Source: Actinomycetota bacterium (lineage in GTDB: Bacteria > Actinomycetota > UBA4738 > HRBIN12). From it: 64,000 nt of DNA. The position numbers and the translations under genes are program-made. Numbering within the stretch: position 1 is the first letter of the stretch; the number at the start of each line of letters is the position of its first letter. Shown one piece after another: positions 32,304-43,317 of this stretch. Location of the stretch: the NCBI GenBank assembly GCA_036265325.1, contig DATAPH010000060.1, positions 13,993 to 77,992 of the forward strand. The letters are read 5' to 3'. The notes below the pieces were generated by a model that saw nothing but the letters and a program-made list of their open reading frames with translations, was not told the DNA's origin and did not search any database.

Positions 32304-32359
32304 GGCCCCCGAGTCTACGAGCGCGGGTCCGGAGGCAGGACCGCGCATATCCTGGGTGG

Positions 32360-33118
32360 ATGGACCACGACCGGCCGCTCATCGCCGTTCCCGCGTACCG
32401 GCTCGGGCCCGGCCGCGTGGAGCGGTGGCCCGATGGCGGCTACGGCGTGCCCGCCCCGTACCTCGACGCGCTTCGGAGAGCCGGTGCGCGGACCGCGATC
32501 CTCGCGCCGGGCGAGGTGGCGGAACCCGGCGAACTCCTCGAGCCCTTCGACGGCTTGCTGCTCGTCGGTGGAGGCGACGTCGATCCTGTGCGGTACGGCG
32601 CCGAGCGCGGGGCGCACGACTACGGCGTCGATCCGCAGCGCGACTCGTTCGAGATCGCGCTCGTGCATGCCGCCGATCGAGCGGCGATGCCGACCCTGTG
32701 CATCTGCCGCGGCGCGCAAGTGCTGAACGTGGCGTTCGGTGGGACGTTGCATCAGCACCTGCCCGAGATCGACGGGCTGCTCGAGCACGGCGTGCCGCTC
32801 GACGGCACAACATCTATGCATGATGTCGAGACGGCGCAGCAGACGAAGCTCGGCGGCGCGACCGCCGCAGGATCGCTCCGCTGCTCGTCGCATCATCACC
32901 AGGGCATCGCGTCGGTCGGGACGGGCCTCACCGTCTCCGGACACAGCAGCGACGGACTGGTCGAGGCGATCGAGCGCGAGATGCCCGAGCCCGGATGGCT
33001 CCTCGGCGTCCAGTGGCATCCGGAAGAGACGGCGGCCGCTGATCCGTCGCAGCAGGGATTGTTCGACACGCTGGTTCGGCTGGCGGGAGATCGGGCCGTC
33101 AGCGCGAGCGCGACGTAG
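32360..33118 (+). CDS. gamma-glutamyl-gamma-aminobutyrate hydrolase family protein (PuuD-like, class I glutamine amidotransferase-like / peptidase C26)
   Basis: Catalytic CICRGAQ (nucleophile Cys) and HHHQG/HPE histidine region typical of PuuD. Confidence 0.85.
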   Translation: MDHDRPLIAVPAYRLGPGRVERWPDGGYGVPAPYLDALRRAGARTAILAPGEVAEPGELLEPFDGLLLVGGGDVDPVRYGAERGAHDYGVDPQRDSFEIALVHAADRAAMPTLCICRGAQVLNVAFGGTLHQHLPEIDGLLEHGVPLDGTTSMHDVETAQQTKLGGATAAGSLRCSSHHHQGIASVGTGLTVSGHSSDGLVEAIEREMPEPGWLLGVQWHPEETAAADPSQQGLFDTLVRLAGDRAVSASAT

Positions 33119-33121
33119 CCG

Positions 33122-33904
33122 TCAGACGCGTTCGCCGCCCACGAACGTCGCGGCAACGTGGCGCCAGTACGCGGCGATCGGTTCGACTGGCGCGAGCGAG
33201 CTGAGCTCTTCGCCCGGAGCGTCATGCACCTGGAGCTCGAACGAGCCCGTGTACGCCGGACCGGTCTCGACGTCTCGCGAGCGCAGGACGACCAGCTCGT
33301 CGAGCGCGTCGCCGCCACCGTCGATCGCCGGCATCCACCGCGAGTGCAGCATCGGCAGCGCGTTGACGAACCCAGCCGTGTCGGCGTTGCCTTCGATCGT
33401 GAAGACGGCGTCGATGAGCCGGCGGTCGTTCGCGGCGAGCGTCGCGCCGATGCGCCCACCCGGCTCCAACCGCGGCCCCGCCTTGCCGATCGACGTCGGC
33501 CGCGTCATCCAGATCGACCCGAGCTTCTTCGGATAGCCCTGGAACCAGCCGCGGGCCAGCGCGAAGTCCTTGTCGACCCAGATCAGGATGCACCGCGAGT
33601 ACGTCTCGCCGTTGTGGCGGCATCGCACGACGATGAACGCCTCCTTGTATTGGGAGCGCACGGGATCGAGCAGTTCCGCGCCGTCGTCGCTGCACGATTG
33701 CCAGTCCGCGAAGACGACGGCGACCGCATCGGGGTCGTCCTCGGCGGGCTCGACGCCGGCCGGCAGCCATCGCCGGACGGACCCCGCGGCCGCGCGGTAT
33801 TCCATCGTCAGGACGTCGCCCGAGTAGTGCCACGGGGGAGCGGGAACGAGCGACGCCGCGCCTTCGGGTGAGCGTGGCGCGAGGAAGCCGCGGAGCTCAG
33901 CCAT
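33122..33904 (-). CDS. acetoacetate decarboxylase (ADC) family protein
   Basis: PAPPWHYSGD N-terminal motif of the ADC-like fold. Start at MAELRG; the 58-aa extension in the track is rejected. Confidence 0.75.
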   Translation of the reverse strand: MAELRGFLAPRSPEGAASLVPAPPWHYSGDVLTMEYRAAAGSVRRWLPAGVEPAEDDPDAVAVVFADWQSCSDDGAELLDPVRSQYKEAFIVVRCRHNGETYSRCILIWVDKDFALARGWFQGYPKKLGSIWMTRPTSIGKAGPRLEPGGRIGATLAANDRRLIDAVFTIEGNADTAGFVNALPMLHSRWMPAIDGGGDALDELVVLRSRDVETGPAYTGSFELQVHDAPGEELSSLAPVEPIAAYWRHVAATFVGGERV

Positions 33905-33923
33905 CGGGGCGGATAATACGTCG

Positions 33924-34769
33924 ATGGAGACGCGCCGCATCGTTCTGCAAGGTCGTCCCGTGACGGTGACCCGCGAAGGCGACGAGCTCGTCACCGACGA
34001 CGGCGAGCGCGTCGCGATCGACGCGGGACAGCACCTTCCTCCCACCGAGCCGTCGAAGATCATCTGCGTGCATCTCAACTACGAGAGCCGGCGCGCCGAG
34101 TTCCAGGCGACGCTCGCGGCGGCCCCGACGTATTTCCACAAGCCGGTGAGCGCGCTCAACCATCACGAGGGCGATGTGGTGCGGCCCCCTCGATGCCGCT
34201 ACCTCAACTACGAGGGCGAGATCGCGATCGTGATCGGCCAGCGCACGCTGCATGTCTCGCCCAGCGAGGCCGAACAACGGATCCTCGGCTACACGGTCGC
34301 GAACGATTACGGGTTGCACGACTTCCGCGACACCGATGCGGGCTCGATGCTTCGCGTGAAGGGCTCCGACACGCTGTGTCCGCTCGGACCGGGCCTCGTC
34401 ACCGACTGGGACTTCCGCGGCAAGCAGATCGAGACCCGCGTCAACGGTGAGATCCAACAGGCAGGATCGACCGACGAGATGATCTGGGACATGCCGTATC
34501 TCGTCGCTGACATCGCGCGCACCATCACCCTTGAGCCCGGCGACGTGATCCTCTCGGGCACGCCGGCCAACTCGCGTCCCGTGGAGCCCGGCGACGTGGT
34601 TGAGGTCGAGGTTGAGGGCTTAGGAACGCTGCGGAACACGATCGTCGAGGGTGACGTCGCGGTCCGCGACGATGTCGGCGCGCAGCCGAGCTCCTCCGAA
34701 GAGGTCGAATCGACGGCGTTCGGCGGCGACTGGGAGTTCCGCGGCATCCGTCCGCCCATGAAAACCTGA
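33924..34769 (+). CDS. fumarylacetoacetate hydrolase (FAH) family protein
   Basis: KIICVHLNY, YEGEIAIVIG and DxTxRD-like metal-binding region; 281 aa. Confidence 0.85.
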   Translation: METRRIVLQGRPVTVTREGDELVTDDGERVAIDAGQHLPPTEPSKIICVHLNYESRRAEFQATLAAAPTYFHKPVSALNHHEGDVVRPPRCRYLNYEGEIAIVIGQRTLHVSPSEAEQRILGYTVANDYGLHDFRDTDAGSMLRVKGSDTLCPLGPGLVTDWDFRGKQIETRVNGEIQQAGSTDEMIWDMPYLVADIARTITLEPGDVILSGTPANSRPVEPGDVVEVEVEGLGTLRNTIVEGDVAVRDDVGAQPSSSEEVESTAFGGDWEFRGIRPPMKT

Positions 34770-34810
34770 CCCGGAGTATGCTCGGCCGAGGTAGATAGTT
34801 CGTATCCAAA

Positions 34811-34860
34811 GGAGTCGACCGAGGGAGTCGACCAAGGGAGTCGACCAAGGGAGTCGAGTG
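34811..34860. repeat. 3.8 tandem copies of a 13-bp unit (GGAGTCGACCRAG) immediately upstream of and running into the GTG start of the glutamine-synthetase-like gene
   Basis: Direct reading: ggagtcgaccgag ggagtcgaccaag ggagtcgaccaag ggagtcgagtg. Each unit carries an SD-like GGAG and a GTCGAC palindrome. Confidence 0.85.
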
Positions 34861-36162
34861 GAGACGAACGGAACACGGCTTCGACTGCTGTGGTCGGACA
34901 TCCACGGCATCGAGCGAGGCAAATACCTCTACGGCAACTGGGCGGAGCGTGGACGCGCCAACTTCTGTCTCGCGACCTTCCCGCTCACGTTCGACCGAGA
35001 GATCCTGCCGATCGAAGGGCTTGCCTTCGACGTCGGACTGCCCGACCTCGAAGCGACGATCGAGCCAGACAGCTTGCGGACCGGTTGGGAGCCGGAGACG
35101 ACCGTCGGGATCGGGCGGCTCAGCCGGCTCGACGCGCCGCTCGCCGTCGATCCGCGGCATCTGTTGGAACAAGCCGTCGCCTCGTGGATCGCGCGCGGCC
35201 TCACGCCGCAGATCGCGTTCGAATTCGAGTTCTACTTGTTGCGACCGGATGGCGAGGATGGCTGGCTCCCACTCTCCACGCCGGGCTCACGCGTGTACGG
35301 AACAGGCATGGCCGTCGACCCAGACGGTGTCGTCGCCGAGATCGTCGCTGCGGCTGCTGCGGCCGGTCTGGATGTCGAGGCGTGGTGCACCGAGTTCGAC
35401 GATTCGCAGTTCGAGGTCAACATCCGCTACCGCGACGCCGTCACCGCGGCCGACGACGCGTTCCTGTTCCGCGTGCTTGCGCACGAGATCGCCACGTCGC
35501 GTGGGCATCGCGCCACGTTCATCGGGCGGCCGTTCGCCGAACGCGGTGGCTCGGGTCTGCACGTGAACATCAGCTTCTGGGACGCAGCCGGCACCAACGT
35601 GCTCTACGACCCGAGCGATGCCGAGGGCCTGAGCGATCTGGCGCGGAACTGCATGGCCGGGATGCTGGCCCATCACGAAGGAACGGCGGCGATCCTGGCG
35701 CCGACCGTGAACGCCTACAAGCGCCTGCTGCCCGACATGATGAACGGCTACTGGGCGAACTGGGGGCACGACGATCGCACGGTGGCGATCCGGATCGGTC
35801 CCGACCGGGGTGACTCGACCCGCCTGGAGAACCGTGTGCCCGACGGCGCGTGCAACCCGTACCTCGCGGCTGCGGCCCTGCTCCACGCCTGCCGGTTCGG
35901 CGTCGAGGACGCGATGACGATGCCCCCCGCACAGCCGATCGCGGCGCAGCCGACCGGCGATCACATCCCGGCGACGCTGGAGGCCGCCGTCGAGGCGATG
36001 GGCCGCGACGACCGGCTGTGCGACGCACTCGGGGCGCCGTTCGTCGATGCGTTCTCGCAGCTCAAGCTCGCAGAGTGGAAGCGGTACACGGAAGCGGTGG
36101 ACGATCCGGCCACGTCGGATCCGACGCCGTGGGAGCTCGACTACTACACCCCGTTCTTCTGA
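34858..36162 (+). CDS. glutamine synthetase family protein (type III-like; gamma-glutamyl-amine ligase, PuuA/IpuC-like)
   Basis: GS catalytic-domain motifs (EFEFYL, GSGLHVNISFWD, NPYLAAAA) without the GlnA N-terminal regulatory features; 434 aa; GTG start. Confidence 0.85.
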   Translation: METNGTRLRLLWSDIHGIERGKYLYGNWAERGRANFCLATFPLTFDREILPIEGLAFDVGLPDLEATIEPDSLRTGWEPETTVGIGRLSRLDAPLAVDPRHLLEQAVASWIARGLTPQIAFEFEFYLLRPDGEDGWLPLSTPGSRVYGTGMAVDPDGVVAEIVAAAAAAGLDVEAWCTEFDDSQFEVNIRYRDAVTAADDAFLFRVLAHEIATSRGHRATFIGRPFAERGGSGLHVNISFWDAAGTNVLYDPSDAEGLSDLARNCMAGMLAHHEGTAAILAPTVNAYKRLLPDMMNGYWANWGHDDRTVAIRIGPDRGDSTRLENRVPDGACNPYLAAAALLHACRFGVEDAMTMPPAQPIAAQPTGDHIPATLEAAVEAMGRDDRLCDALGAPFVDAFSQLKLAEWKRYTEAVDDPATSDPTPWELDYYTPFF

Positions 36163-36172
36163 TGGAGCGTTC

Positions 36173-37423
36173 GTGACGGCCGTCCTCGATGGGATCGATC
36201 TGGCCGATCCCGACAACTTCGTCGACGGGGTGCCCTACGACTGGTTCCGGCGACTGCGCGAGGAAGCGCCGGTCGCGTGGCATCCCGAGCCGGGATCGAA
36301 CGCCGGATTCTGGGCGGTCACGCGCTACGACGACCTCGTCGCGATCCACATGGATTGGGCGACGTATTCGTCCGAGGTCGGCGCCGTCTCACTGGAAGAG
36401 CTCGATCCCGAGCAGCTCGAGATCCGGCGGTCCATGCTCGAGACCGACCCGCCACGGCACACGAAGCTCCGGTCGATCTGCGCCAAGCGGTTCAGCGCGC
36501 GCGGGGTGGGGCAGTACGCCGACTGGATCCGAGACGTCGCACGCGAGGTGCTCGATGCGGCGCTGCTGAGCGACGAACCCTTCGACTTCGTCGGCTCGAT
36601 CAGTCGCGAGCTGCCGATCCGGTTCCTATGCTCGATCTTCACCGTGCCGCAAGAAGATGCGCCGCAGCTGATCTCGTGGGGCGACAAAATGATCGCGAAC
36701 CAGGACCATGAGCTGTCCGCCGCGGTCATCGACAAGGTCGACACCGAGGAATACCGACTGCTGCCGTTCCGCTCGCCGGTCGCACGGGACGTGTTCGCGT
36801 ACGCAGATGCGCAGGCCGACGAGCGACGTGCAGAACCGAGCGACGATGTGATCCAGGCGCTCGTCACCGCCCAGAACGAAGGCGTGCTGAACGAGCGCGA
36901 GTTCCACAACTACTTCTCGCTGCTGATGATCGCGGGCAACGAAACGACGCGGCACACGATCAGCGCCGGGATGCTGGCGCTGATGGCGAACCGCGACCAG
37001 ATGCAGCTGTTGACCGACGAGCCCGAGCGCATCCCCCTGGCCGTCGAAGAGATCCTTCGGTGGGCGACGCCGGTGCTGCATTTCCGCCGGACGGCGACCC
37101 GCGACGTCGAGCTGCGTGGGGAGACCATCCACGCTGGCGACAAGGTCGTAACGTGGTACATCAGCGCCAACCGCGACGAGGACGCCTTCGACGAGCCGGG
37201 CGCGTTCGACGTGACGCGCAAGCCGAACGACCACGTCACGTTTGGTCCGGGCGGTCCGCACTTCTGTCTCGGCGCGCACCTGGCACGCCTCGAGGCCACG
37301 ATCCTGTTCGAGGAGCTGCTCCCGCGGATCCGGTCCATCGAGCTCGCCGGCCCGACCGAACGCATCCGCTCGAACTTCGTCAACGGCATCAAGCGGATGC
37401 CGGTGCGGATCGAAACGCGCTAA
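36173..37423 (+). CDS. cytochrome P450
   Basis: Heme-binding loop FGPGGPHFCLGAHLAR, EEILRW (ExxR) and AGNETT I-helix. GTG start 10 nt after the GS-like stop, with GGAG 6 nt upstream. Confidence 0.9.
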   Translation: MTAVLDGIDLADPDNFVDGVPYDWFRRLREEAPVAWHPEPGSNAGFWAVTRYDDLVAIHMDWATYSSEVGAVSLEELDPEQLEIRRSMLETDPPRHTKLRSICAKRFSARGVGQYADWIRDVAREVLDAALLSDEPFDFVGSISRELPIRFLCSIFTVPQEDAPQLISWGDKMIANQDHELSAAVIDKVDTEEYRLLPFRSPVARDVFAYADAQADERRAEPSDDVIQALVTAQNEGVLNEREFHNYFSLLMIAGNETTRHTISAGMLALMANRDQMQLLTDEPERIPLAVEEILRWATPVLHFRRTATRDVELRGETIHAGDKVVTWYISANRDEDAFDEPGAFDVTRKPNDHVTFGPGGPHFCLGAHLARLEATILFEELLPRIRSIELAGPTERIRSNFVNGIKRMPVRIETR

Positions 37424-37923
37424 GACCCGTCGCGGTCCTGGACGCTTCGTGACAACGATCTGAGCAACGACGCCAAACGGTCTTGATCGCGCTCGCCGAG
37501 CGTGCCGGCGATCGCCGTTTCCTCGGCGTTGAATCTCGGGAACAGGTGCTCGATCGTCGTGCGACCGGCCGGGGTGAGCGACACGAGGACACTCCGACCG
37601 TCGTCCGGGTCGGCGCGACGGGCGATCCACCCGCGGGCGTCGAGGGTCCGCAGCACCCCGGTCGCCGTCGGACGGCTGATCCCGACGGCCTCGGCGAACG
37701 CGTTCGCGCCGAGCTCTCCCCAGACCCACAGGACCCAGAGCGCGACGAACCCGGTCCACGACACTCGTTCGGTCGCGAGCACCTTCCCCTCCATATGCCG
37801 GCGAACCGCGGCCGCGCTCCGGAACAGATTCGAGATCGCCCACATCGCGCGGAAGTCCAGCTGCCGGTCGCCGAGCGTCTCCAGAACCTTGCGTTCTGCG
37901 GGCAGCAGGTCGTCCGCGCTCAT
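37420..37923 (-). CDS. MarR family transcriptional regulator
   Basis: Winged-HTH pattern (ISRPTATGVLRTLDARGWIARRADPDDGRS); 167 aa; ATGA-type overlap with the upstream decarboxylase; stop overlaps the convergent P450 stop. Confidence 0.85.
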   Translation of the reverse strand: MSADDLLPAERKVLETLGDRQLDFRAMWAISNLFRSAAAVRRHMEGKVLATERVSWTGFVALWVLWVWGELGANAFAEAVGISRPTATGVLRTLDARGWIARRADPDDGRSVLVSLTPAGRTTIEHLFPRFNAEETAIAGTLGERDQDRLASLLRSLSRSVQDRDGS

Positions 37924-39335
37924 GCCGCGCCCGACATCAGCCGGCCGCCGAGCTCACGGGCAACGTCCAAGATCGCCTCGACGTCTTCATCGGTGGTTCG
38001 GAAGTTCACGAAGCACGGACGGAGCCACACCTCGCCGTCGATCAGCGCCGACGCGAGGTAGATCCGGCCGTCGGACTGGATCGCGTCGGCGAGCCGCTGG
38101 TTGTGCGCATCGACCGCGACGCCCGTTGGCGCATGCCGGAAGGGCACGATCGAGAGCTGCGGAGGAGCTTCGAATACCTCGAAGTCCTCGCTCGACTGCG
38201 CCCGGCGGTAGAGCAGGTCGGCCTCTTCCAGGTTGCGGGCGATCGCGTCGCGGAACTGCTGAGCCCCGTGGGCACGGAAGGCCAGCCACGCCTTGAGCGC
38301 GCGGAACGGCCGCGAGTACTCGAGGGTGATATCGGCAGCGTGCAGTTCGTGCTGCTGGTGGGGGAGATACCCCTGCTCGTGCGAGAACGACTCCTCGAAG
38401 GCATCCCCGTGTCGGCTCATGACGACGCCGCACGCCTTGGGCAGGTAGAGCCATTTATGCGCGTCGACCGAACACGAGTCGGCGCGAGCCAGCCCGGCGA
38501 ACACCTCGGGACGGATCGCCGCGGCCGGAAGTCCGTAGGCGCCGTCGACGTGGAGCCAAACCTCGGCTGCTTCGCAGGCATCCGCGACCGCGTCCAGATC
38601 GTCGACCGCGCCGGTCAAGGTCGTGCCGGCCGACGCCACGACGGCCACGGGCGTCGCGCCGTCGGCTCGGTCGGCTGCGATCGCGTCCGCCAGCAGGTCT
38701 GGGCGCATCCGTCGGAGCGGATCCAGCGGGATCGCACGCAACCGGTCCGACCCGATGCCCAGCAGCTCCACTGCACGGGTCACCGAGTAGTGAACCTCCT
38801 CCGAGCAGTACACGACGGGGCGCTGGCCGCCGAGTCCGGCGTGCCGCGACCCCGGCAACGCGCGTTCGCGCGCGGCCGCCAGCGCCGTCAGGTTGCTGAT
38901 GGTTCCACCGCTGGTGAAGGCGCCCGTCGCCACGGGATACCCGACGAACGATCCGATCCAGCGCACCGCCTGCTGTTCCACAACGGTCGCCGCCCGCGCG
39001 TCGACCGCGAGGTTGATGTCGTACGTGTGCGCGAGCAGGTCGCCGATCGCGCCGATCGGCAGCCCGCTCGACCCGATGAAGGCAAAGTACCGCGGCCGTG
39101 GCTGTGCGATCGATTCGTCCAGGATCCGTGCCGCATCGTCGAGCGCCTCATGGACAGGCACGGGCTCTTCCGGCAATCCCGCCCTGATCAACGCGCGGAC
39201 GCGATCGTCCAGCGGCGGCTCCTCCGGGCGGAACCGGTCGAACGACCCCCATGCTTCTTCGACGAGCCGCGCCGCGTGCGCCAGCGCCTCCTCGCGAGGG
39301 GCGTCGAGGCGCAGCGGCCGCTCGTCGTCGGTCAT
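37920..39335 (-). CDS. PLP-dependent decarboxylase (group II pyridoxal-dependent decarboxylase family)
   Basis: SVDAHKWLYLPKACG (PLP-Lys) and HVDGAYG. Start at MTDDERP; the track fuses this ORF with the upstream permease frame. Confidence 0.85.
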   Translation of the reverse strand: MTDDERPLRLDAPREEALAHAARLVEEAWGSFDRFRPEEPPLDDRVRALIRAGLPEEPVPVHEALDDAARILDESIAQPRPRYFAFIGSSGLPIGAIGDLLAHTYDINLAVDARAATVVEQQAVRWIGSFVGYPVATGAFTSGGTISNLTALAAARERALPGSRHAGLGGQRPVVYCSEEVHYSVTRAVELLGIGSDRLRAIPLDPLRRMRPDLLADAIAADRADGATPVAVVASAGTTLTGAVDDLDAVADACEAAEVWLHVDGAYGLPAAAIRPEVFAGLARADSCSVDAHKWLYLPKACGVVMSRHGDAFEESFSHEQGYLPHQQHELHAADITLEYSRPFRALKAWLAFRAHGAQQFRDAIARNLEEADLLYRRAQSSEDFEVFEAPPQLSIVPFRHAPTGVAVDAHNQRLADAIQSDGRIYLASALIDGEVWLRPCFVNFRTTDEDVEAILDVARELGGRLMSGAA

Positions 39336-40873
39336 CCGATCCCTTCCGCGCGCACGCCGGCCGGATTGATCCCGTCCGCCTCGTCGGAGCGGAGCTCGTC
39401 GAGGACGCTGCTCGCCGGCGCCCGTCCCTTCATCACGAACGCGACGATCAGGCCGAGGACCGCCCACACCGCGACGTACTCCCAGACCAGGTTGAACGGC
39501 GACGGCTGCTTGTAGATTCCGCCGAAGACGGCGGCGACCGAGATCGCGACGCCGATCAGCGCCGCGATCACGACGCCGACGTAGTTCGCGCCCTCGCGCA
39601 AGCCCCAGAACGAGCCCAGCGCGAGGAGCCCGTAGACGACCATCAGCGCGAACCCACCGAACGTCGACAGCCACAGGAACATGTCGAAGAAGTGCGGGCT
39701 CGGGCTCGCGCTCGCGAACACCGAGTCTGCGAACTGCGCGATGCCGACCATGATCAGCGACACCGCCTCGACGAAAATGATCGCCGCGACCGGCGTGCCA
39801 CGGCGATGAGCGACCGCCGCCAGGCCGCCCGGGATCCGCCGGTCGCGCGCCAACGCGAACACGCCGCGTGCGGACGCGACCGCCGCACCCAGTCCAACCG
39901 CGAGGATGTCGAGGAGCACCACGACCTCGAGCACCTTCAGGATGAAGTCCGAGCCGTACCCTCCTGCCGCCGTCGGTGATCCGAGTGCGAACAACGGCGC
40001 GGCGGCGACGGCGGGATCGGTGATGACGGAGAGGTCTTGCCCGAACCCGACGATCTGCGCGTAGGCCGCGATCAGGTAGAACACCGTCGCGATCAACACC
40101 GTGTACAGCACCGCGCGAGGGATCGACCGCTTCGGCTCGGCCGTTTCTTCCCCCAGGTTCGCCGCCGTCTCGAACCCGACGAAGATCAACACGCCGTACA
40201 GGACGCCGAACATGATGCCGCTCCATCCGTCCGCGGCCGAGCTCGGCTTGAACGGCTCGAGGTTCGTGTTCGGCGCATCCACGATCACCTTGACGAAGAA
40301 CGCGAGCACCACGACGGCCGACGCGAGCGCCAGTGTCAGCTGCGCCCGGGTCGAGATGTGAACGCCGAGGTACTGCACCAGGAACACCGCCGCGACGAAG
40401 ATGAGGCTCCAGCCCCACATCGGCAAGGGCGACGTGGACGAAAGCACGCCCGGAACCGCCGGGTCGACGGTGAAGATCACGTCGTGGACGTACCAGCCGA
40501 CCAGGCACGCGATCGCCGACGCCAGGACCGTGGTGCCGCCGTAGTAGATCCAACCGGCGAACGCGCCCGCTCGGCCGCCCAGACCGTTCGACACGTAGTC
40601 GTAGAGCGAGCCAGCCGCGTGTACCCGCTTCGCATACTGCGCGACGATCCAGCCGAGCGCGAACGTCCCGATCGCCGCGAGCAGCACGGCGAGCGGCGTC
40701 GCAACACCCGCGCCCTTGCCCGACGCGCTCACTCCCGCGATCAGCGGGATCAGGAACGCCGCCGAGAACACGGGTCCCATGAACCCGACCGATTGCGAGA
40801 TGCAGTCCACCAGCCGAAGCCGCTTCGCGCCGAGGCGCTCGTAGCCCAGCTTCTCCTCCGGCATGTCCGCCAT
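39332..40873 (-). CDS. APC superfamily amino acid / polyamine permease
   Basis: Twelve predicted TM helices with APC-type consensus (GSGIF-like region GKGAGVATP, FVGFE). ATG of MADMPEEKL is preceded by GGGAGAGGGGGA. Overlaps the decarboxylase start by 4 nt. Confidence 0.85.
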   Translation of the reverse strand: MADMPEEKLGYERLGAKRLRLVDCISQSVGFMGPVFSAAFLIPLIAGVSASGKGAGVATPLAVLLAAIGTFALGWIVAQYAKRVHAAGSLYDYVSNGLGGRAGAFAGWIYYGGTTVLASAIACLVGWYVHDVIFTVDPAVPGVLSSTSPLPMWGWSLIFVAAVFLVQYLGVHISTRAQLTLALASAVVVLAFFVKVIVDAPNTNLEPFKPSSAADGWSGIMFGVLYGVLIFVGFETAANLGEETAEPKRSIPRAVLYTVLIATVFYLIAAYAQIVGFGQDLSVITDPAVAAAPLFALGSPTAAGGYGSDFILKVLEVVVLLDILAVGLGAAVASARGVFALARDRRIPGGLAAVAHRRGTPVAAIIFVEAVSLIMVGIAQFADSVFASASPSPHFFDMFLWLSTFGGFALMVVYGLLALGSFWGLREGANYVGVVIAALIGVAISVAAVFGGIYKQPSPFNLVWEYVAVWAVLGLIVAFVMKGRAPASSVLDELRSDEADGINPAGVRAEGIG

Positions 40874-40893
40874 GGAGTCCCCCTCTCCCGCCG

Positions 40894-41787
40894 CTAGGCG
40901 GCCGCGTCCGTCCACCCTTCCGCGGGACGCTCGAACCACACGTGCACCTGCCCGGTGCCGACCGATGCCTCGTATTCGCTGAATAGCTCGCCCGGCGCAC
41001 GACACTCGGCGCCGCCCATCGCCGCGGCCATCATCAGGTAGTGACCGAAATGGCCCTCGGGGTAGGCCTTCCGGTAGGTCGGCATGTTGTCGATCACGCC
41101 GGCGTGGTCGCCCTTCTGCATCAGCTCGAGCACGCGCATGTCGGCGTCGTAGTACGCGCGATCGTAGATGTTGTCCGGCGCCCGCTGGGCCTCACGCTGC
41201 CGGAGCTCCTTGAACCCGAAGAACCGGTGCGTCATGCCGCCCGAGGCGAGCAACACAACACGGCGGTCGCTCTCGGCGATCGCCTGCCCGATCAGCGACC
41301 CGAGCAGCAGGAAGTCGTCGGTGTCGCAGCATTGGTTGAGCGCGACACTCAGCCAGCTCGTGTCGGGGTCGCCGAGGAACGACCAGATGTTGACTGTGCC
41401 GTAGAAGATCGGCAGGTACGGGTCGTCGGACGCGAGGATCCAACAGTCGTCACGGCCCTCGGCCTGCGCGGCGATCCGCTTCGCGAGGTCAGGGTCGCCC
41501 GGCATGTCGTACGGGATCTGGCGCATGCCCCGTGGGAGCTCGCTGCTCGTGAACAGGCCCTGTCGCCGGTCCTGTGCGGTCACGATGTGCTCGAACGTCG
41601 ACTCCCAGTGTGTGTCGAAGACGATCACCGTGTCCGGCTTCAGCCGATCGATGCACTCGCTCTTCATCCGTTGCAGGCCTGGGACCAGGGAGATCTCCTT
41701 GCCGTCGTTGAGCTCGAGCCGGACGTCCTCCGGCAGCATGATCGTCGGAACGTGCGCGACCAGCGCCGCGCCCACCACCTCACCCAT
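40894..41787 (-). CDS. class III extradiol ring-cleavage dioxygenase (LigB / AmnB family catalytic subunit)
   Basis: N-terminal VVGAALVAHVPTIM, and H..W..H.. metal ligands (DTHWES, GGMTHRF) typical of the LigB superfamily. Confidence 0.8.
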   Translation of the reverse strand: MGEVVGAALVAHVPTIMLPEDVRLELNDGKEISLVPGLQRMKSECIDRLKPDTVIVFDTHWESTFEHIVTAQDRRQGLFTSSELPRGMRQIPYDMPGDPDLAKRIAAQAEGRDDCWILASDDPYLPIFYGTVNIWSFLGDPDTSWLSVALNQCCDTDDFLLLGSLIGQAIAESDRRVVLLASGGMTHRFFGFKELRQREAQRAPDNIYDRAYYDADMRVLELMQKGDHAGVIDNMPTYRKAYPEGHFGHYLMMAAAMGGAECRAPGELFSEYEASVGTGQVHVWFERPAEGWTDAAA

Positions 41788-41796
41788 CAGTCCTCC

Positions 41797-43317
41797 TCAC
41801 CCGCCGGACGGCGGCGCTGTCACGACGTTCTTCACGTCTGCGTAGAAGTCGAAGCTCCAGCGACCCCCCTCGCGGCCGATCCCTGAGTTTCGCGACCCGC
41901 CGAACGGCGCGTCGAGATCGCGCACGAAGAAGCAGTTGACCCACACAGTGCCGGCGACGAGCTGCTCGCCGACCCGTCGCGCGCGCGCCTCGTCGCCCGT
42001 GTAGACGGTCGCGGCCAGGCCGTAATCGGTGCTGTTGGCGAGCTCGATCGCCTCCGCCTCGTCACGGAACGGCTGCGCCGTCAGCACGGGTCCGAAGATC
42101 TCCCGCGTCAACAGCGGCGAGCCATCCGGCACATCGACGAAGACGGTCGGCCGGTAATAGAGCCCGCCGAGATCCTCGTTCGGACCGCCTCCGACGAGCG
42201 CCCTCGACCCTTCGTCGTGTCCGGCCCGGACGAACCCGTCGACGCGCTCGAAGTGTTCGCGGCTGATGAGCGGCCCGATGTCGGTCGGCTCGTTGCGAGG
42301 GTCGCCGACGACAACGCGGGCCGCTACCTCAGCGAGACGTTCGAGGAAGTCGTCGTAGATCGAGGACTCGATCAAGAGACGGGTACCGGCAAGGCAGACC
42401 TGGCCCGCGTTGTCGAACTGGCCGACCGCCTGGTTCAGCGCCGCGCCCCGGTCCGCGTCGGCGAAGATCAAGAATGGCGACTTGCCGCCGAGCTCGAGGG
42501 ACGTCGGGGTGAGGTTCTGGGCCGCCGCCGCAGCGACGAACCTCCCCGTTTCGACCGATCCGGTGAACGCGATCCGGCTCACGCCAGGGTGGGCGACCAG
42601 AGCCGCGCCCGCCTCCTCACCGATCCCTTGGACGACGTTGTAGGCGCCGGCGGGGAGTCCGGCGTCGAGCGCGATATCGCCGAGCAGCGACGCGGTGAGC
42701 GGCGCCCACTCCGGCGGCTTGTGTACGACGGCGTTCCCGGCGGCGAGCGCCGGCGCGATCCGCCACGTTGCAAGCATCAGCGGCGCGTTCCACGGTCCGA
42801 TCACCGCGGTGACGCCCGACGGATCCCACGTGAATCGCTCGCGGTTGCCGTTGAAGGTCGCGTCCCCTTCCGCCTCGATCTCGAGCAACTTGTCGGCGAA
42901 GAACCGGAAGTTGCGTGCGACCCGAGGCATCACCGACCGGCGGTGCGACCGGAGGAGCGATCCGTTGTCGCGCGTTTCAACGACCGAGATCTCTTCGACC
43001 CTGGCCTCGACGCCGTCGGCGATCCGGTGCAGAACGGCAGCGCGGTCCTTCGGCGGCGTGCGTCCCCATCCGCGGGCGGCGTGATCCGCCGAGGCGACCG
43101 CGAGATCGACGGTGTCTGCATCGCCGCGTGCAACCTCGGCGATGACCTGTTCGTCGATCGGCGAGACGTCCGAGAACCGTTGCTGCGAACCGAGGCGTTC
43201 GCCGCCAACCAGATGGTCGGTCGAGACCTCGACCCCTTCGACCACGGCGCGCTCGTCCGTTGGCTCCTCCAGATGGTTCGTATCCGAACGGTATGGCTGG
43301 AGGCTTTGCGCTGTCAA
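41797..43317 (-). CDS. NAD(P)-dependent aldehyde dehydrogenase (semialdehyde dehydrogenase-like)
   Basis: ELGGKSP, catalytic FDNAGQVCLAGTRL (Cys) and GSVETG motifs; 506 aa. Confidence 0.9.
   Translation of the reverse strand: MTAQSLQPYRSDTNHLEEPTDERAVVEGVEVSTDHLVGGERLGSQQRFSDVSPIDEQVIAEVARGDADTVDLAVASADHAARGWGRTPPKDRAAVLHRIADGVEARVEEISVVETRDNGSLLRSHRRSVMPRVARNFRFFADKLLEIEAEGDATFNGNRERFTWDPSGVTAVIGPWNAPLMLATWRIAPALAAGNAVVHKPPEWAPLTASLLGDIALDAGLPAGAYNVVQGIGEEAGAALVAHPGVSRIAFTGSVETGRFVAAAAAQNLTPTSLELGGKSPFLIFADADRGAALNQAVGQFDNAGQVCLAGTRLLIESSIYDDFLERLAEVAARVVVGDPRNEPTDIGPLISREHFERVDGFVRAGHDEGSRALVGGGPNEDLGGLYYRPTVFVDVPDGSPLLTREIFGPVLTAQPFRDEAEAIELANSTDYGLAATVYTGDEARARRVGEQLVAGTVWVNCFFVRDLDAPFGGSRNSGIGREGGRWSFDFYADVKNVVTAPPSGG

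Follow-up and report, generated by a model that had tools for sequence, protein, structure and literature searches.

The window, by which we mean the whole 64-kb stretch of DNA that was analysed, contains a glutamine-synthetase-family ligase gene whose leader carries a short tandem array. The ligase gene and its neighbours are arranged as follows (positions are those of the window):

32360-33118, forward strand: Peptidase_C26 protein (gamma-glutamyl hydrolase-like), by family match
33122-33904, reverse strand: acetoacetate decarboxylase (ADC) / MppR-like protein, by family match
33924-34769, forward strand: fumarylacetoacetate hydrolase-family protein (FAH, HpaG-like), by family match
34858-36162, forward strand: glutamine-synthetase-family ligase, HEX3300256.1, GTG start, with a Gln-synt_C domain
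36173-37423, forward strand: cytochrome P450, starting 10 nt past the ligase stop, with its own GGAG-5nt-GTG
37420-37923, reverse strand: MarR-family regulator, convergent with the P450 gene; best NCBIfam match HpaR, below cutoff
about 37920-39335, reverse strand: PLP-dependent decarboxylase
40894-41787, reverse strand: LigB extradiol dioxygenase
41797-43317, reverse strand: aldehyde dehydrogenase (ALDH)

In NCBIfam the ligase matched gamma-glutamylputrescine synthetase and type III GS best, and neither match reached the cutoff; the protein is recorded from an Actinomycetota MAG. Its GTG at 34858 is the first possible start past an in-frame TAG (34792-34794), and the start is sound because the orthologs all align from residue 1. 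Among the 403 members of the 90%-identity protein cluster that contains the ligase are 281-aa FAH-family proteins; their presence looks like an artefact of database clustering and not biology. The P450 gene is probably co-transcribed with the ligase and hence lies downstream of the array on a shared mRNA.

From the family names, the cluster looks like one for aromatic-amine or homoprotocatechuate-type catabolism. The gene content of 32360-43317 suggests a gamma-glutamylation-dependent aromatic-amine route feeding a homoprotocatechuate-type meta-cleavage pathway, with a trio of ligase, P450 and hydrolase that we take to be comparable to the Pseudomonas isopropylamine (Ipu) pathway. At 6-8 nt ahead of its ATG, Peptidase_C26 has TATCCT, the ADC-like gene TATTAT and FAH GATAAT (32330-32362 and 33904-33924), and none of the three has a Shine-Dalgarno (SD) sequence; the TATCCT of Peptidase_C26 is leaderless-promoter-like and lies 8 nt before the ATG. 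To judge from sequence, this is the arrangement that leaderless transcripts would show at the 5' ends of these three genes. ADC and FAH are transcribed divergently from starts separated by only 19 bp, so that the promoter of each has to sit within the coding sequence of the other.

The features of the ligase leader, together with a related site at the ALDH gene, are as follows:

34777-34782, forward strand: TATGCT, a -10-like hexamer (TANNNT)
34798-34811, forward strand: GTTCG-TATC-CAAAG, a degenerate copy of an inverted repeat, with a right arm made up of bases 1-6 of array unit 1
34806-34818, forward strand: array unit 1, CCAAAGGAGTCGA, the ancestral type
34819-34831, forward strand: array unit 2, CCGAGGGAGTCGA
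34832-34844 and 34845-34857, forward strand: array units 3 and 4, both CCAAGGGAGTCGA
34811-34814, forward strand: SD core GGAG
34823-34827, 34836-34840 and 34849-34853, forward strand: SD cores GGGAG
43276-43289, reverse strand: GTTCGGATACGAAC, a perfect-arm inverted repeat at the ALDH 5' end, after TTGACA-N18-TACCGT

The original prediction of a 13-bp tandem repeat at the ligase leader was borne out by the sequence and by TRF, which gave a period of 13, 4.0 copies, 92% matches and a score of 90. This was the top score among the 49 rows of the window and also among the 264 rows of a 269-kb set composed of the window and related loci. The array occupies 34806-34857, with GTAT before unit 1 and GTGGAGACG directly after unit 4. 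The register used earlier (GGAGTCGACCRAG from 34811) describes the identical array and contains three full units and 8 bases. The repeat had been called perfect; however, there are two variant positions (AAAGG in unit 1 versus [GA]AGGG in units 2-4, and CCGAG in unit 2), and the perfect repeated tract runs from the tail of unit 2 through units 3 and 4. The supposed overlap with the start codon was not found either: the last base of unit 4 is 34857, directly before the GTG (34858-34860), so that the array abuts the gene.

The SD core expected in every unit was indeed present, and all four units pair about equally with the canonical actinobacterial anti-SD (duplex energies of -8.4 to -10.2 kcal/mol), a sequence that was assumed and not taken from this genome. 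A start codon is present only after the last SD, that of unit 4, at a 4-nt spacer (TCGA, 34854-34857); no ATG, GTG or TTG follows units 1-3 in any frame across 34783-34857. The GTCGAC palindrome that had been assigned to each unit exists at the three unit junctions, where ...GTCGA of one unit meets CC... of the next to give three regularly spaced copies in the array, but the fourth unit reads GTCGAG.

In a search of the window in which the array units themselves matched at 0-1 mismatch, the 13-mer had nine other matches, all at 2 mismatches, scattered inside coding sequence, none of them tandem or intergenic. A viral-contig scan for the 13-mer gave no match. Membership of a dispersed VNTR/MIRU family or of a mobile element was rejected because a second tandem site was found neither in the window nor in the viral contigs. 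An Rfam covariance-model scan of 34400-35200 (E<=10) gave two chance-level matches (E 3.2 and 9.1), both outside the array, and the idea of a known RNA family was rejected as no match covered the array.

An exact-protein look-up with the product of the upstream FAH gene recovered eight contigs from eight other metagenome samples, six from JGI (3300036806, 3300037068, 3300031996, 3300031938, 3300047321, and 3300047313) and two from ENA (ERZ27248475 and ERZ27248473). These contigs shared 99.65-100% nucleotide identity with the window, and the 88-nt FAH-ligase spacer, the four units and both variant bases were identical in all of them. In all nine assemblies, one per dataset, the array was identical, even in haplotypes that differed by 6 substitutions over 1.7-3.7 kb; these assemblies are consensus sequences, in which minor or rare copy-number variants would be hidden. 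The original prediction had allowed for an assembly artefact, which was checked and refuted. The general risk that repeats are misassembled is all that speaks for this explanation, and its probability is negligible, given that eight JGI and ENA contigs, assembled independently of one another, carry the array unchanged and that its 52 bp are spanned by single reads and k-mers. The 52 bp also fall short of the k-mer length of 141 to which the 'k141' prefix of the ENA contig names points. The array is a real, lineage-restricted duplication in uncultured soil Actinomycetota. Nine near-identical assemblies without variation have little power to show selection.

A one-genome-per-species scan identified 38 related loci, all from uncultured Actinomycetota, and more were added by a metagenome leader-pattern scan and look-ups. 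A single module was present in the ~30 ortholog leaders that were examined (58-95% protein identity), and four copies occurred in the window lineage only. The closest orthologs, L001 (95% amino acid identity), L005 (94%), and L047 (93%), were all single-copy; outside the window lineage, the next-closest sequences showed only 80-86% DNA identity to it. The closest single-copy leader reads ...GTTCGTATCCAAAGGAGTCGA immediately before the GTG, and the leaders of L001, L005, L041, and L044 read ...GATAGTTCGTATCCAAAGGAGTCGA followed directly by GTGGAGACG. Compared with single-copy relatives, the array constitutes a 39-bp insertion, that is, three extra copies of the 13 bp preceding the start, and the distance from the FAH stop to the ligase GTG is 88 nt in the window versus about 49 nt in the relatives. 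Because every other ortholog examined has one copy, the array is a 39-bp lineage-specific amplification of the SD and its spacer. The expected variation in copy number was thus seen between related lineages (four versus one) but not among the nine assemblies of the window lineage. Intermediates with two or three copies were absent among cluster members at 90-99.5% identity, within which the 95-99.5% range was unsampled.

The ancestral module is identical to unit 1. One A>G substitution (AAAGG to AAGGG) is common to units 2-4, and a second A>G is found in unit 2. This pattern of substitutions requires growth in steps. In the simplest history, a first duplication was followed by an A>G in the added copy, this derived copy was then duplicated again, and the second A>G came last. 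The differences among the units indicate that the multi-copy state persisted for some time and that the units are not homogenised. The array presumably originated by slipped-strand mispairing or unequal exchange.

Among the other leaders, a tandem duplication was seen in that of L022 alone (70% amino acid identity), in which an independent 11-bp x2 duplication (AACCGCCAAAG, L022 2956-3000) lies between the right arm of the inverted repeat and the SD. The background TRF density gives P about 0.12 for this event, and recurrent selection is therefore not supported. A GGAGC...GGAGC in L007 was considered as a leader duplication and rejected as too weak to count.

The -10-like hexamer takes the form TAT[CG]CT in most orthologous leaders, and G-N-TAT(C/G)CT is kept upstream of nearly all orthologs, which fits the actinobacterial -10 pattern TANNNT. 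It was retained despite a different upstream gene in L007, L009, L010, L012, L018, L020, L022, L026, and L028. The distance from this motif to the start codon is 33-46 nt in relatives, 59 nt in L022, and 75 nt in the window. The conserved hexamer points to a putative promoter at 34777-34782, with transcription starting near 34790. Consensus scans for sigma-70 promoters and terminators around the array and the ALDH 5' region gave no match; the sigma-70 result is uninformative because the -10 boxes of the host look like TANNNT with poor -35 elements. We infer that the array is contained in mRNA either way, as part of a 5' UTR or of the intercistronic RNA after FAH.

Between the -10-like box and the SD, orthologs of about 67-95% identity share a sequence-conserved inverted repeat, GTTCG-N4-CGAA(G/C), which was present in the ligase leaders of most loci from L007 to L028. 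Its right arm is already degenerate (CAAAG) throughout the clade formed by L001-L008 and the window. The perfect-arm copy at the ALDH site has the opposite orientation to that of the ligase leader and is kept in L039 (4408-4421) and L043 (8095-8108); in L043 the N4 is different. Across the sites the arms are conserved and the N4 varies. GTTCG-N4-CGAAC was not enriched in the window when up to 1 mismatch was allowed (9 found versus 6.1 expected), and the idea of an operator rests on cross-species conservation at two loci. On this conservation, the inverted repeat is likely the DNA operator of a small hpa-like regulon, and the HpaR-like MarR protein is possibly the binder of this repeat and not of the array. 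The repeat is the more useful regulatory lead at this locus, as it would link the ligase/P450 leader and the ALDH/LigB genes to a common regulator, probably of the MarR/HpaR type.

The possibility that GTTCG...CGAA, or a GUUCGU/ACGAAC pairing, forms a conserved RNA hairpin was dropped after RNAalifold on 27 orthologous leaders yielded no consensus structure and no RNA covariation. In single-sequence folds, GUUCGU (34798-34803) pairs with ACGAAC (34863-34868, codons 3-4) and UCCA pairs with UGGA, and the SD and GUG are enclosed. In the four-copy leader the loop of this hairpin holds the array. The L001-L008 clade preserves the pairing, and the wider family does not.

We propose that the array is a fixed, slippage-derived amplification of a ribosome-binding-site (RBS) module with a modest constitutive effect at the mRNA level, and that it is neither a DNA operator nor an on/off switch; we put the probability of this explanation at roughly 55%. 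The amplified 13-bp module comprises the right end of the inverted repeat, the SD and the 4-nt spacer of the ligase. As a complete module, the unit would be tolerated in any copy number, since the junction of unit 1 with the inverted repeat and an SD 4 nt before the GTG would always be kept. Transcription would initiate at the TATGCT that lies 75 nt before the start codon or would read through from the FAH gene. The leader, about 30 nt long before the amplification, would now measure about 69 nt, with three start-less SD sites, 13 nt apart, before the real SD. These extra anti-SD-complementary sites may act as docking sites for the 30S subunit, in a standby or STAB-SD-like manner, and GUCGAC, by pairing from one unit to another, would hide the last SD in part. 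Overall, ribosome loading and/or the stability of the ligase-P450 transcript would change modestly and constitutively.

The sequence is consistent with the suggestion that the repeated SD cores serve as standby sites. Loading of 30S subunits through upstream standby sites has been documented (PMC5924895, PMC5934652), and start-less SD or polypurine stretches stabilise mRNA in Bacillus (STAB-SD) and in mycobacteria (PMC2358910). The array agrees with STAB-SD-like sequences in its anti-SD complementarity and in that no start codon lies within initiating distance of units 1-3. The predicted unpaired probability of the last SD fell from 0.89 with one copy to 0.43 with four copies, and the predicted folds of the array and leader were not better than those of shuffled sequences (z -1.3 to -1.8). 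The direction of any effect is ambiguous, with extra docking sites on one side and lower predicted accessibility of the SD on the other. The tight leader length of 33-46 nt in relatives and the persistence of the array with two substitutions argue weakly against complete neutrality.

A stronger form of this explanation is that the array is a selected and stably maintained ribosome-loading pad, in which amplification of the RBS module raises translation or mRNA stability. It would do so by standby binding of 30S subunits or by blocking a 5'-exonuclease as in STAB-SD, and a catabolic operon (gamma-glutamyl ligase and P450) would be tuned while its promoter and operator were left untouched. The L022 duplication at the equivalent junction would be a second instance of this route. 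We consider this stronger form unlikely.

The main rival explanation is that the array is a neutral passenger, produced by the same slippage amplification and drifted to fixation with no measurable effect on expression, and we regard it as possible though doubtful. It fits the comparative data as well as the explanation that we prefer: the modular unit renders any copy number harmless by leaving the upstream element and a functional RBS intact, the array is conserved in one lineage only, it folds no better than shuffled sequences, and the duplication in L022 is within the background TRF rate. However, relatives keep the -10-like motif within a narrow range of distances from the start codon, which suggests a constraint on leader length, and the array lasted through two substitutions and is invariant in strains up to 0.35% diverged. 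Given what is established about SD-anti-SD pairing, three strong anti-SD-complementary sites 13-39 nt upstream of the RBS are also unlikely to be invisible to the 30S subunit. Frequent slippage that switches or grades ligase expression, as supposed in the original prediction of a phase-variable contingency locus, is very improbable. A tandem array of short units adjoining a start codon, a perfect tract over units 3 and 4 and the tail of unit 2, and copy numbers of four versus one between lineages are what such a locus could show, yet exactly four copies with equal variant bases were found at the consensus level in all nine assemblies, and the units are not homogenised. Hypermutable repeats typically have tract lengths well above four copies of a 13-bp unit, and 4 x 13 bp falls well under them. 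The contingency-switch reading is unsupported because copy-number variation was not seen.

It is hardly credible that the array is a protein-binding operator or iteron array, with GTCGAC bound by a regulator such as the neighbouring MarR protein, although three regularly spaced palindromes and a MarR gene 2.6 kb downstream gave the original prediction some ground. GTCGAC is a product of the unit junctions, the single-copy ancestral state being GTCGAG, and the array is missing in all orthologs even though the 6.7-kb alignment with the closest ortholog, L001, covers the MarR region. The hexamer is common (106 in the 64-kb window), no similar 13-mer occurs at other intergenic sites of the window, and the conserved inverted repeat is a separate and better operator candidate than the GTCGAC of the array. 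The argument from helical phase fails as well: a 13-bp period turns successive sites by about 85 degrees and does not hold them on one face of the helix. The array could alternatively be a multi-site target of a GGA-recognising RNA-binding protein (CsrA/RsmA-like), with GUCGAC stems, C[CA/CG]AGGGA loops and the last site over the SD. CsrA targets have several GGA sites, one of them placed at the SD, a layout that the array matches, and the array folded alone forms two hairpins with GGGA in or beside the loops. Against this, the stems are of 5-6 bp and fold no better than shuffled sequences, the single-copy relatives are without such a layout, and CsrA is, to our knowledge, generally absent from Actinomycetota; this explanation is scarcely to be entertained. 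CsrA has been listed as a candidate for the TAACTGA repeats (PMC4679880).

As an event the array is ordinary, one more case of an intergenic tandem duplication or VNTR; what is unusual is its content, a gene's own RBS in four copies. Like the mycobacterial MIRU/ETR VNTR loci, it is a short intergenic array between same-strand genes of an actinobacterium, variable in copy number between lineages and likely of slippage origin. Unlike them, it is a single locus with no other copy in the window or related loci, and its unit is the ribosome-binding site of the gene itself; compared with MIRU, the unit is also shorter (13 bp), and polymorphism within the lineage was not seen in nine assemblies. The Haemophilus, Neisseria, and Moraxella contingency loci, whose repeats lie in promoters or 5' UTRs, likewise have tandem units directly before a coding sequence, a position from which copy number could grade its expression, but the present array has long units, a low copy number, diverged units and no hypervariability that was seen.

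With the STAB-SD and polypurine stabilisers, of which B. thuringiensis cry3A, B. subtilis and M. tuberculosis/M. smegmatis katG provide examples (PMC2358910), the array shares start-less leader SDs complementary to the 16S 3' end (units 1-3). It differs in having three such sites, which are duplicates of the real SD at 13-39 nt from it; in katG, the stabilising polypurine sequence lies 4 nt before the start (PMC2358910). The array also resembles the ribosome standby sites of MS2 coat, tisB, and lpp in offering an extra upstream stretch for a 30S subunit that waits until the real RBS is free or unfolded, but those sites are described as unstructured or S1-dependent regions, whereas the array consists of SD repeats (PMC5934652, PMC5924895), and its real RBS, unlike those of standby systems, is not predicted to be strongly structured. 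The TAACTGA heptamers of Beggiatoaceae and Cyanobacteria also form tandem short units that end a few nt before the start codon; they occur in two to six tandem copies, and a post-transcriptional role has been proposed for them (PMC4679880). They form a genome-wide family of 169 sets in which one heptamer replaces canonical RBSs (PMC4679880), whereas the array is one locus and its unit is itself a canonical RBS.

If the extra SD copies alter expression, the locus would be a clean natural case of translation tuning by duplication of an RBS module, and a natural test of standby and STAB-SD ideas in Actinomycetota with one versus four copies. What it offers at present is mainly a practical, negative result: a real and stable repeat that is not a conserved regulatory site and should not be labelled an operator or a phase-variation locus in annotation.

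A second 13-bp x 4.0 array was observed in the distant ortholog L022 (JBKOWM010000057.1, 4296-4347), at the opposite end of the ligase gene, where it repeats the last ligase codons and the stop (GCCTTTCTTCTAG GCCACTCTTCTAG GCCATTCTTCTAT GCCCTTCTTCTAG). Its period and copy number equal those of the window array, and its sequence is unrelated. This may be a coincidence, or it may reflect a tendency of these genomes toward short arrays at gene boundaries.
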